A DNA stretch of 64,000 bases, taken from NCBI RefSeq assembly GCF_003334405.1, contig NZ_QOWM01000004.1. One strand, given 5' to 3'. Under the pieces are notes generated by a model. That model was not told the origin of the DNA and made no database searches. It was given only the letters and a program-made list of their open reading frames with translations. Positions within the stretch are counted from its first letter, which is position 1; each line of letters begins with the position of its first letter. The position numbers and the translations under genes are program-made. Positions 47,148 through 47,995 of the stretch are shown here, piece by piece. The stretch comes from Escherichia coli (lineage in GTDB: Bacteria; Pseudomonadota; Gammaproteobacteria; Enterobacterales; Enterobacteriaceae).

Positions 47148-47169
47148 AATCAATCCAGCCCCTGTGAGT

Positions 47170-47189
47170 TACTGTATGGATGTACAGTA
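47170..47189. promoter_or_regulatory. LexA operator (SOS box) of sulA
   Basis: TACTGTATGGATGTACAGTA matches CTGT-N8-ACAG. Confidence 0.9.
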
Positions 47190-47365
47190 CATCCAGTGAC
47201 AACAAAGATCAACCCTATTTTCGGAAAGAGCCTCGCAAATTTTGTCGTTGGTGACGGGAAAACATAAATTAATCTTGCCCCTTAAGAATAAGTTGCCTAT
47301 TTTCGTAGTTAACGGATCCGTTAATGTGAATCATTCTTTTATGTTATGATTTTAAAAGGAATTTT

Positions 47366-47995
47366 ATGAAAAGCCTCTCCTATAAGCGGATCTATAAATC
47401 ACAAGAATACCTGGCAACGTTGGGCACAATTGAATACCGATCATTGTTTGGCAGTTACAGCCTGACCGTTGACGACACGGTGTTTGCGATGGTTTCTGAT
47501 GGTGAGTTGTATCTTCGGGCTTGTGAGCAAAGTGCACAGTACTGTGTAAAACATCCGCCTGTCTGGCTGACATATAAAAAGTGTGGCCGATCCGTTACCC
47601 TCAATTACTATCGGGTTGATGAAAGTCTATGGCGAAATCAACTGAAGCTGGTGCGTCTGTCGAAATATTCTCTCGATGCAGCGCTGAAAGAGAAAAGCAC
47701 GCGCAATACCCGGGAAAGACTGAAAGATTTGCCCAATATGTCTTTTCATCTGGAAGCGATTCTCGGGGAGGTGGGGATTAAGGATGTACGGGCGTTACGT
47801 ATACTTGGGGCAAAAATGTGTTGGTTGCGACTGCGGCAGCAAAACAGTCTGGTGACAGAAAAGATTCTGTTTATGCTTGAAGGTGCCATTATCGGCATTC
47901 ATGAAGCTGCGCTCCCGGTGGCACGCCGCCAGGAGCTTGCAGAATGGGCTGACTCTCTTACGCCGAAACAGGAGTTTCCTGCGGAACTTGAGTAA
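47366..47995 (+). CDS. sxy: Competence regulator Sxy/TfoX
   Basis: 209-aa ORF recognised as Sxy/TfoX. Confidence 0.92.
   Translation: MKSLSYKRIYKSQEYLATLGTIEYRSLFGSYSLTVDDTVFAMVSDGELYLRACEQSAQYCVKHPPVWLTYKKCGRSVTLNYYRVDESLWRNQLKLVRLSKYSLDAALKEKSTRNTRERLKDLPNMSFHLEAILGEVGIKDVRALRILGAKMCWLRLRQQNSLVTEKILFMLEGAIIGIHEAALPVARRQELAEWADSLTPKQEFPAELE

Follow-up and report, generated by a model that had tools for sequence, protein, structure and literature searches.

The sulA–sxy control region and the overlapping 3′ coding ends of sxy and yccS in Escherichia coli

The sxy (tfoX) gene of Escherichia coli lies between the divergent gene sulA and the convergent gene yccS, and this arrangement raises two questions: whether the 218 bp in front of sxy act as a long, structured leader that limits translation, and whether the overlap of sxy with yccS gives scope for antisense interference. 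We addressed both, which come from an original prediction for this locus, in the window, the whole 64-kb stretch of DNA analysed here. According to the ORF list and the RefSeq annotation, sulA (46638–47147, − strand) encodes the SOS cell-division inhibitor, sxy (47366–47995, + strand) encodes the competence regulator Sxy, 209 aa long and composed of a TfoX_N and a TfoX_C domain, and yccS (47958–50120, − strand) encodes a putative transporter, whose start is placed at 50120 by PGAP (720 aa) and at 50111 in the MG1655 annotation (717 aa). The assignment of Sxy to the TfoX/Sxy family is based on PF04993 and PF04994, found on a near-identical cluster representative and on homologs, and agrees with the RefSeq product name. 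The coordinates first reported for the sxy ATG (47366), the sxy stop codon (47993–47995), the yccS stop codon (47958–47960), the 218-bp intergenic region and the 38-bp overlap were all correct. Between 45000 and 52000 a single SNP, at 46016 in ompA, sets the window apart from E. coli K-12 MG1655, and the sulA–sxy–yccS region is identical in the two; every one of the 5,426 complete E. coli genomes matched the window, at 90–100% identity. This arrangement of sulA, sxy and yccS has been well studied in E. coli, and the finding restates an annotated architecture that was already known. Very probably, we are dealing with two ordinary features already documented in K-12, namely a back-to-back control region of sulA and sxy and a convergence of sxy and yccS without a spacer.

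Conservation was assessed with 43–81 Enterobacteriaceae sequences depending on the test, with a 43-sequence alignment for the intergenic region, 78 sequences for RNAalifold and 80 species for synteny. The sulA–sxy intergenic region, 47148–47365 by RefSeq coordinates, was 215–220 bp long in 79 of the 80 species. In the 43-sequence alignment, its conserved blocks had majority fractions of 0.84–0.95, and its spacers lay at 0.46–0.53, the level of third codon positions (0.53). On the sulA side, the LexA box TACTGTATGGATGTACAGTA at 47170–47189 was the sole match in the 64 kb to the pattern TACTGTATNNATNTACAGTA, with 0.01 matches expected by chance. The box had a majority fraction of 0.94, and its CTGT/ACAG arms were kept across the 43 sequences apart from a single change in E. 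albertii. We take TACTGT (47189–47184, − strand), inside the box, to be the sulA −10, following the textbook picture of this promoter. Upstream of it by 17 bp, a putative −35 hexamer, TTGATC (47213–47208, − strand), lies within the invariant block AAGATCAA (47205–47215, majority fraction 0.95), so that the LexA box would overlap the sulA core promoter. The unique match, the conserved arms and the overlap with the −10 support the assignment of this operator to sulA, for which LexA binding and induction by DNA damage are well established. No part in the control of sxy is known for the box.

On the sxy side, the half-sites published for the sxy promoter's CRP-S site (PMC6728893) located this site at 47219–47240 (+ strand). 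We found an exact match to CGGAA-N6-TCGCA at 47222–47237, centred on 47229.5, with the distal half-site CGGAA at 47222–47226 (TTCCG on the other strand) and the proximal half-site TCGCA at 47233–47237 (TGCGA on the other strand). The site had a majority fraction of 0.86 in the 43 sequences and is what a CRP-S promoter calls for, a CRP-type site of 22 bp in which TGCGA forms the core half-site. The sequences and the orientation of the Psxy half-sites have been published, the conserved half being the promoter-proximal one (PMC6728893). Activation of Psxy is reported to need Sxy, CRP and cAMP (PMC6728893, citing Jaskolska & Gerdes 2015) and is Class I-like, with AR1 of CRP required and AR2 dispensable, and the chromosomal sxy gene is induced by ectopic Sxy (PMC6728893). 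In the laboratory, E. coli sxy is silent, and no condition that induces it is known (PMC3330819).

How much of the 218 bp is transcribed as a leader depends on the position of the sxy start. The only published E. coli start is a G residue 115 bp 5′ of the ATG, at 47251 (+ strand), reported as data not shown (PMC3330819). This position falls in the least conserved stretch of the region, 47241–47265 (majority fraction 0.52), and only ~21 bp from where the CRP-S site is centred. The conservation pattern points to a candidate sxy core promoter at 47275–47303 (+ strand), consisting of a −35 element TTGCCC (47275–47280), a 17-bp spacer and a −10 element TATTTT (47298–47303). The TTG of the candidate −35 was invariant in the 43-sequence alignment and the TAT of the candidate −10, spaced as TATnTT, was invariant in 78 sequences, while the half of the spacer beside the −35 lay at the neutral conservation level. 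This candidate agrees with the consensus at 8 of 12 positions and is therefore missed by a simple promoter scan; our consensus promoter and terminator scan gave no match in the sxy leader. The SMRT-Cappable-seq tables make no mention of sxy, and the supplement of PMC6728893 gives no sxy start. Another hexamer, TATGAT at 47345–47350, was rejected as a −10, as several species no longer have the A that is essential at position 2, and TGAT is the invariant part.

From the conserved TTGCCC-17-TATTTT arrangement, we infer a start at about 47310–47312. A start near 47310 would place the centre of the CRP-S site at about −81/−82, as compared with ~−21 relative to 47251, a Class I position that agrees with the Class I-like genetics (PMC6728893). 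The published start does not fit this predicted promoter and seems too near the CRP-S site for activation, so that there may be two starts, or the promoter call may be wrong. Going by the published start, the transcribed sxy leader is at most 115 nt long, and conservation suggests that it may be only about 55 nt. This is at variance with the original prediction, which treated the 218 bp, including about 175 bp between the LexA box and the ATG, as a leader: about 65 bp are the 5′ UTR and promoter of sulA, 47219–47240 is the CRP-S site, and even the published start is only 115 nt upstream. Most of the 218 bp is promoter DNA.

Taken together, the 218 bp would make up a compact control region serving sulA and sxy back to back. 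Read from sulA towards sxy, it would begin with the sulA 5′ UTR, followed by the LexA box, which covers the sulA −10, and by the sulA −35; the CRP-S site lies 5 bp beyond, and after it would come a spacer fixed in length and free in sequence, a weak sigma-70-type core promoter and a short leader, rich in A/U, whose SD is an ordinary one. The binding of cAMP-CRP together with Sxy at the CRP-S site would drive sxy transcription in a Class I-like positive autoregulation. Control of sxy in E. coli would mainly be transcriptional, through CRP-S autoregulation, and post-translational, through Lon proteolysis, with no reliance on a stable inhibitory fold of the leader.

Three conserved elements of this region are explained by no published model, and all three gave weak pairing signals: a palindrome TTAACGGATCCGTTAA, the block AAGTTGCC, which sits upstream of and fused to the candidate sxy −10, and an invariant TGAT (47347–47350). 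The palindrome, detected by an inverted-repeat search at 47309–47324 (+ strand), is a perfect one of 16 bp, contains GATC and coincides with the predicted sxy start. It is unique within the window, with a majority fraction of 0.84 beside neutral flanks. When considered as a hairpin, 77.5% of its cells were paired, as compared with 22–48% in slid controls, and its covariation was 0.183 as compared with 0.138 in shuffles; there was no excess of G-U over A-C (43 vs 35), and the left half was better conserved than the right. The palindrome may act as a short hairpin at the 5′ end or as a binding site for a protein. One possible explanation is that it serves as the operator of some repressor, or as a Dam/SeqA-sensitive element, which keeps sxy off in laboratory conditions. 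In favour of such a function, the palindrome is perfect, unique in the window, conserved next to neutral flanks and directly downstream of the conserved candidate −10, and both the missing G-U bias and the best-conserved centre CGGATCCG suit DNA recognition more than an RNA stem. However, some lineages retain the hairpin with altered stem bases, as in Buttiauxella (GUUACUG-GAAA-CAGUAAC), which is RNA-like, and the sxy start position is itself a predicted one; we consider the operator explanation unlikely. We know of no E. coli transcription-factor motif that matches TTAACGGATCCGTTAA. We likewise give only a small chance to the broader idea that the palindrome, the AAGTTGCC block and the invariant TGAT of this length-fixed region together form the binding sites of a repressor, or a switch acting at the RNA level, which, if true, would account for the lack of any laboratory condition that induces E. 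coli sxy. One useful by-product is the map of conservation across this control region, in which 47266–47280, 47290–47304, 47309–47324 and 47345–47352 present themselves as targets for mutagenesis.

At the other end of sxy, its coding sequence overlaps that of yccS by 38 bp (47958–47995), which encode Sxy residues 198–209 and the last 12 residues of YccS. Both stop codons (sxy, TAA at 47993–47995 on the + strand; yccS, TAA at 47960–47958 on the − strand) are fixed by the sequence, so that the overlap cannot be removed by any alternative annotation. It was asked originally whether the overlap is conserved in other enterobacteria, and we found that it is: the 3′ ends of the two genes overlap in 73 of the 80 species, by 4–80 bp. 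Sxy is conserved up to W194, residues 195–209 vary in sequence and length, and the tail of YccS is likewise unconserved; the length of the overlap drifts because both protein tails are unconserved. True insertions between the two genes were seen in two species (249 bp and 2.3 kb), and apparent gaps in L012 and L041 proved to be artefacts of a disrupted yccS. In the window, coding sequences overlap in three of nine convergent pairs (zapC/ycbX, 4 bp; sxy/yccS, 38 bp; yccX/tusE, 4 bp), among which that of sxy/yccS is the longest, yet not exceptional. The conserved cores of Sxy and YccS end ~30–40 bp apart with no spacer between the genes, and each reading frame runs through the unconstrained tail of its partner to a stop codon, giving an overlap of lineage-dependent length.

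A terminator scan found no intrinsic terminator near the stop codon of either sxy or yccS. Since the two genes leave no space in which a terminator could lie, each transcript must enter its partner in the antisense direction, where it would presumably be stopped by Rho or by a weak signal. The original claim that convergent transcription runs into the partner gene finds support in published transcriptomes. In RNA-seq, yccF and yccS are cotranscribed as one operon (Conway et al. 2014, PMC4161252), and the operon of sxy converges with this one (PMC4161252). ExcludonFinder 2025 (PMC12288877, Table 1) includes sxy–yccS among 165 convergent excludons, a listing which means that no fewer than 50% of 58 MG1655 transcriptomes showed the overlap. 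With a coding overlap of 38 bp here and the transcript overlap taken from PMC12288877 and PMC4161252, the two genes are convergent neighbours with overlapping transcripts, as in an excludon, and antisense run-on of both transcripts would give the transcript overlap seen in RNA-seq.

Antisense interference at this overlap is possible, and it could be a selected function, in which read-through from yccF–yccS, as the more active partner, helps to silence sxy by polymerase collision or by RNase III cleavage of the duplex, with the reverse taking place when sxy is induced. The recurrence of the pair as a convergent excludon (PMC12288877), the converging operons (PMC4161252), the lack of an intrinsic terminator near either stop codon, the overlap in 73 of 80 species and the silence of sxy under laboratory conditions (PMC3330819) would all fit such a function. 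However, overlap of transcripts is the norm among convergent E. coli operons (276 of 370, or 75%, by 286 nt on average; PMC4161252), the overlap is free to drift in length and the tails in sequence, and two species tolerate the insertions described above. Moreover, induction of the chromosomal gene by ectopic Sxy (PMC6728893) indicates that promoter-level control suffices. Selected silencing by yccF–yccS seems improbable to us, even though the near-universal abutment of the two 3′ ends could reflect selection instead of ordinary synteny. We prefer the hypothesis that termination at this junction is of the Rho type and that the overlap probably carries no selected antisense function.

The remaining explanation is a leader of the type known from H. 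influenzae, in which the E. coli 5′ UTR would pair with the early coding region, hide the SD and the AUG and limit translation until some signal opens the fold. A structured, translation-limiting sxy leader has been shown experimentally in H. influenzae, where mutations weakening the stem raise translation (PMC2248739), and the V. cholerae tfoX leader is likewise structured according to the summary given in PMC3330819. For E. coli, Sinha & Redfield mention, as an unpublished result, an Mfold stem-loop that they call 'very similar' to the H. influenzae and V. cholerae ones (PMC3330819). The literature evoked by the original prediction belongs to these two species, and the structure prediction that it called for turned out negative in E. 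coli. The fold energy of the leader was no better than that of shuffled sequence (z = +1.20, −0.47 and +0.12), RNAalifold on 78 sequences returned 0 consensus pairs in the sxy leader, and an Rfam scan of 46000–49000 at E ≤ 10 gave only chance matches to snoRNA and plastid families. In the ensemble, the sxy start codon was unpaired with a probability of ~0.81 and the SD with one of ~0.43, and about 7.5 kcal/mol are needed to open the ribosome-binding window.

The minimum-energy fold of E. coli pairs 47292–47310 with codons 11–18 and 47314–47322 with codons 7–9. We rejected both helices as conserved features, as the covariation of 47314–47322/47385–47393 (GGAUCCGUU/AGCGGAUCU) was no better than that of shuffles (375 of 500 reached its score) and the whole long-range structure, with helix 47292–47310/47397–47418, was without covariation (91 of 500). 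The GUUGCC/GGCAAC helix was paired in just 50% of cells. Weak covariation signals were limited to two short helices, the palindrome hairpin and 47344–47352/47396–47404, the latter scoring slightly above shuffles. Local folding predicted a weak hairpin at 47344–47369 (+ strand), in which the conserved AUGAU, with the invariant TGAT, pairs with the start-codon region and the SD AAGGA (47356–47360) lies in the loop. The E. coli hairpin had an energy of −1.4 kcal/mol; Salmonella, Citrobacter and Enterobacter gave values of about −1 to −6 kcal/mol, and Kluyvera, Leclercia, Trabulsiella and related genera values of −4 to −8 kcal/mol; 81.7% of its cells were paired, essentially without double-sided changes. 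An upstream ORF beginning at ATG 47346 (MILKGIL, with a stop codon overlapping the sxy ATG) was rejected as a coding element, as its frame and length are unconserved, with 2 codons in Salmonella and a frame shared with sxy in Enterobacter. In the abstract of their 2015 study, Jaskolska & Gerdes reportedly state that nothing pointed to control of E. coli Sxy at the level of translation. The 115-nt UTR with its Mfold stem-loop (PMC3330819), the pairing with codons 7–9 and 11–18, the start-codon hairpin predicted in most genera and the slight excess of 47344–47352/47396–47404 over shuffles are outweighed by the ordinary fold energy, the missing consensus structure, Rfam family and long-range covariation, the half-paired GUUGCC/GGCAAC helix, the shallow E. 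coli hairpin, the mostly unpaired AUG and this reported result, and we regard a leader of the H. influenzae type as very doubtful. With the structured leader unsupported, and the excludon, whose function is putative, already catalogued (PMC12288877), the finding is of little weight.

In comparison with known systems, the sulA part conforms to the textbook layout of the sulA (sfiA) SOS promoter, a canonical 20-bp LexA box over the −10, with no difference here. The sxy promoter is the E. coli CRP-S promoter of Sondberg et al. 2019 (PMC6728893), with the same locus, the same half-sites, the same Class I-like character and no sequence difference; what the present analysis would add to the published accounts of Psxy (PMC6728893) is a candidate −35/−10 pair at 47275–47303, with the CRP-S site near −81/−82. 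Like other convergent excludons of E. coli (PMC12288877, PMC4161252), sxy and yccS converge without a spacer and have overlapping transcripts, but unlike pairs whose overlap is confined to 3′ UTRs, their coding sequences themselves overlap, by 38 bp. Like sxy of H. influenzae (Cameron et al. 2008, PMC2248739) and tfoX of V. cholerae, the orthologous gene of E. coli has a leader, reported to reach ~115 nt, parts of which pair with early codons in the minimum-energy fold. In contrast to the leaders of those two species, that of E. coli is without thermodynamic excess, consensus structure or long-stem covariation, and its ribosome-binding site is largely open. The E. coli sxy promoter also differs from those of H. 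influenzae and V. cholerae in that its site is of the CRP-S type and not a canonical CRP site.

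The sulA-sxy-yccS locus is already known. The segment 46600-48400 has a counterpart of 90-100% identity in each of the 5,426 complete E. coli genomes, and 45000-52000 differed from K-12 MG1655 by one SNP, in ompA (the MG1655 coordinate minus 973,772 gives the window coordinate). Over its whole length, the window differs from MG1655 by 13 isolated SNPs and an out-of-register block between two compensating indels in the ompF-to-ssuB region (13236-20201). In the RefSeq annotation, sulA (46638-47147) is located on the minus strand, sxy (47366-47995) on the plus strand, and yccS (47958-50120) on the minus strand, followed by yccF and helD; the start of yccS differs by record, at 50120 (720 aa) in PGAP and at 50111 (717 aa) in the MG1655 record. 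When checked in the sequence and this annotation, all numbers of the original prediction were correct, and its observation as a whole was confirmed. The sulA-sxy intergenic region (47148-47365) is 218 bp, and the sxy stop codon TAA (47993-47995) and the yccS stop codon TAA (47960-47958, minus strand) leave 38 bp of shared coding sequence, an overlap that is not removable by re-annotation because stop codons are set by the sequence. The most likely reading of the locus is that sulA would be under LexA control, while sxy would have a weak promoter autoactivated by Sxy through the Sxy-dependent CRP site (CRP-S), an ordinary leader, and a tail-to-tail overlap with yccS that is neutral, drifts and would entail obligatory read-through.

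We took the sxy locus from 80 other Enterobacteriaceae species; the alignment of the sulA-sxy intergenic region comprised 43 of them, with sxy third codon positions (majority-base fraction 0.53) as the neutral yardstick. The intergenic length was 215-220 bp in 79 of the 80 species, and blocks with majority-base fractions of 0.84-0.95 alternated with neutral-rate spacers of 0.46-0.53. Despite the internal neutral-rate stretches, the divergent control region seems to be held to a constrained spacing as a whole. The block nearest sulA comprises its start and Shine-Dalgarno (SD) region. It is followed by the LexA box TACTGTATGGATGTACAGTA (47170-47189; 0.94), which covers the sulA -10 element TACTGT on the minus strand and is the sole match to the pattern TACTGTATNNATNTACAGTA in 64 kb, with 0.01 expected by chance. 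The sulA -35 element TTGATC lies within the invariant AAGATCAA (0.95), and five bp beyond this block is the CRP-S site, TTTTCGGAAA...TCGCAA (47219-47240; 0.86). A neutral stretch (47241-47265; 0.52) separates this site from an A-rich block whose last bases are ATCTTGCC (47266-47280; 0.86). Nine neutral bp then lead to AAGTTGCCTATTTTC (47290-47304; 0.93), and further on lies TTAACGGATCCGTTAA, a perfect palindrome (47309-47324; 0.84). All indels fall in the variable, A/U-rich stretch that comes next, and beyond it are TATGATTT with an invariant TGAT (47345-47352; 0.90), the SD AAGGA (47356-47360) and the ATG. None of the 81 sequences departs from this TGAT (47347-47350), which precedes the sxy ATG by 16-19 nt. 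The 16-bp palindrome contains a Dam GATC, is unique in the window and is kept across genera. Upstream, a short ORF at 47346-47369 (ATG ATT TTA AAA GGA ATT TTA TGA) ends in an ATGA that joins its stop to the sxy ATG; this ORF probably has no coding role, as its frame and length vary in other genera. Within sxy, Arg8 (47387-47392) is encoded by the rare codons CGG/AGG in most species and keeps the nucleotides GGAT(C/T), and codons 8-9 may be under nucleotide-level constraint.

With the CRP-S site and the sulA blocks in place, about the first 95 bp of what had been taken for a 218-bp leader are not leader and represent sulA UTR, promoter and upstream activator site. Sondberg et al. (2019; PMC6728893) describe TTCCG as the promoter-distal and TGCGA as the conserved promoter-proximal half-site of CRP-S; on the plus strand of the window, these are CGGAA (47222-47226) and TCGCA (47233-47237). 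According to that study, sxy is activated by Sxy and cAMP-CRP via this site with Class I-like genetics, CRP AR1 being needed and AR2 not. Within the csgI/yccT coding region, a second exact CGGAA-N6-TCGCA (53621-53636) is probably coincidental, with 2 such matches against 0.24 expected.

The only E. coli sxy start site found in our literature search is a G located 115 bp upstream of the ATG (Sinha and Redfield, 2012; PMC3330819, data not shown). This start corresponds to 47251, which falls within the neutral stretch; the CRP-S centre (47229.5) is about 21 bp away, and CRP is not known to activate from such a distance. No sequence of the 43 in the alignment departs from TTG at 47275-47277, and 78 sequences keep TATnTT at 47298-47303; the spacer between the TTG hexamer and TATnTT is exactly 17 bp, and its half adjoining the -35 evolves neutrally. 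This conservation points to a sxy promoter other than, or additional to, one for 47251. The candidate, TTGCCC-17-TATTTT, matches 8 of 12 consensus positions and falls under the threshold of a simple promoter scan, a weakness as expected for an activator-dependent promoter. Such a promoter would predict a start near 47310-47312 and a leader of about 55 nt, and would place the CRP-S centre near -81/-82, a Class I position. The palindrome coincides with this predicted start, and we regard the conserved elements from the CRP-S site to the ATG, the palindrome especially, as mildly interesting. Upstream of sxy and on the same strand, a stationary-phase antisense transcript spans all of sulA (46638-47147, plus strand; Conway et al., 2014).

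At the other end of sxy, the Sxy alignment is conserved to W194, and the tail beyond it (residues 195-209) differs between species in length as well as in sequence; most have a Sxy of 200-209 aa and Trabulsiella one of 220 aa. YccS is conserved to ...LLPEI(G/C)RLQxQ(I/V), after which 0-13 residues vary. The conserved cores of the two proteins, on opposite strands, thus stop about 30-40 bp from each other, leaving no spacer, and each frame continues to whichever stop codon comes by chance. The 3' ends overlap in 73 of the 80 species, by 4, 7, 11, 14, 16, 20, 23, 32, 35, 38, 41, 44, 47 or 80 bp, a count that excludes a contig labelled as an uncultured Raoultella MAG (23-bp overlap), which may duplicate Citrobacter braakii. 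In one species the ends meet with neither gap nor overlap, and in another they lie 11 bp apart. True insertions separate the genes in two species, one of 249 bp with a REP-like hairpin (L048, 4625-4873) and one of 2.3 kb with two genes for 423-aa and 200-aa proteins (L050, 4616-6901), and the overlap is therefore dispensable. Two more apparent gaps were artefacts of disrupted yccS. The presence of the overlap in most species, at varying length, indicates that abutment of the two genes is a stable, ancestral state and that the overlap itself is no conserved sequence feature.

No intrinsic terminator was found downstream of either stop codon, and the sxy and yccS transcripts must therefore each run antisense into the partner. 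The GC-rich inverted repeat GCTCCCGGTGGCACGCCGCCAGGAGC (47911-47936), in the conserved part of sxy and, in the minus-strand direction, 22 nt beyond the yccS stop, is without a U tract; minus-strand 47975-47810 folded with z = -2.24. The interpretation given to the locus was partly supported: the scope it suggests for antisense transcription is real and has been published before. ExcludonFinder (2025) gives sxy-yccS as one of 165 convergent excludons, i.e., convergent gene pairs with overlapping transcripts, seen in 50% or more of 58 transcriptomes, and together with Conway et al. it amounts in effect to the proposed RNA-seq check for read-through. Coding regions overlap in three of the nine convergent pairs of this window, including zapC/ycbX (32719-32722) and yccX/tusE (56567-56570) by 4 bp each, and all three pairs appear on the ExcludonFinder list.

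The structured 218-bp leader, the other part of that interpretation, was not supported. Folding was no better than that of dinucleotide-preserving shuffles for 47190-47400 (z = +1.20), 47251-47425 (z = -0.47) or 47308-47425 (z = +0.12), an Rfam scan gave no match, and RNAalifold returned zero consensus pairs for 78 distinct sequences covering 47294-47410. The helix 47314-22/47385-93, paired in 77.9% of cells, showed no covariation (375 of 500 shuffles reached its score). In the E. coli ensemble, the unpaired probability was 0.81 for the start codon and 0.43 for the SD, and opening the 30-nt ribosome-binding window would cost about 7.5 kcal/mol. Jaskolska and Gerdes reportedly saw, in 2015, no evidence of translational regulation of E. 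coli sxy, and Sxy is said in the same work to be degraded by Lon.

The start-codon helix 47345-51/47362-68, in which AUGAU pairs with AU(C/U)AU(G), was paired in 81.7% of cells, with one double-sided change in 546 cells. At -1.4 kcal/mol, its predicted stability in E. coli is marginal; the values are about -1 to -6 kcal/mol for Salmonella, Citrobacter and Enterobacter, and Kluyvera, Leclercia, Trabulsiella and related genera reach -4 to -8 kcal/mol. The palindrome hairpin 47308-14/47319-25 gave a modest signal, with 77.5% of cells paired vs 22-48% in slid controls and a covariation of 0.183 vs 0.138 in shuffles. Its cells included 43 G-U and 35 A-C, with no G-U excess, and its centre and left half were more conserved than its right half; the palindrome (47309-47324) could equally be a DNA site or an RNA hairpin.

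For E. coli, leader structure appears in the literature in an Mfold remark alone (PMC3330819). The helix 47292-47310/47397-47418 was paired in 70.1% of cells (50% for its GUUGCC/GGCAAC part) and showed no covariation (91 of 500 shuffles reached its score), and its UAUUUU/GAAUA pairing is explained by independently conserved elements. In its architecture, this E. coli helix resembles the sxy leader of H. influenzae, which was shown by experiment to be structured and translation-limiting (PMC2248739), a type of leader also attributed to V. cholerae in the summary of PMC3330819.
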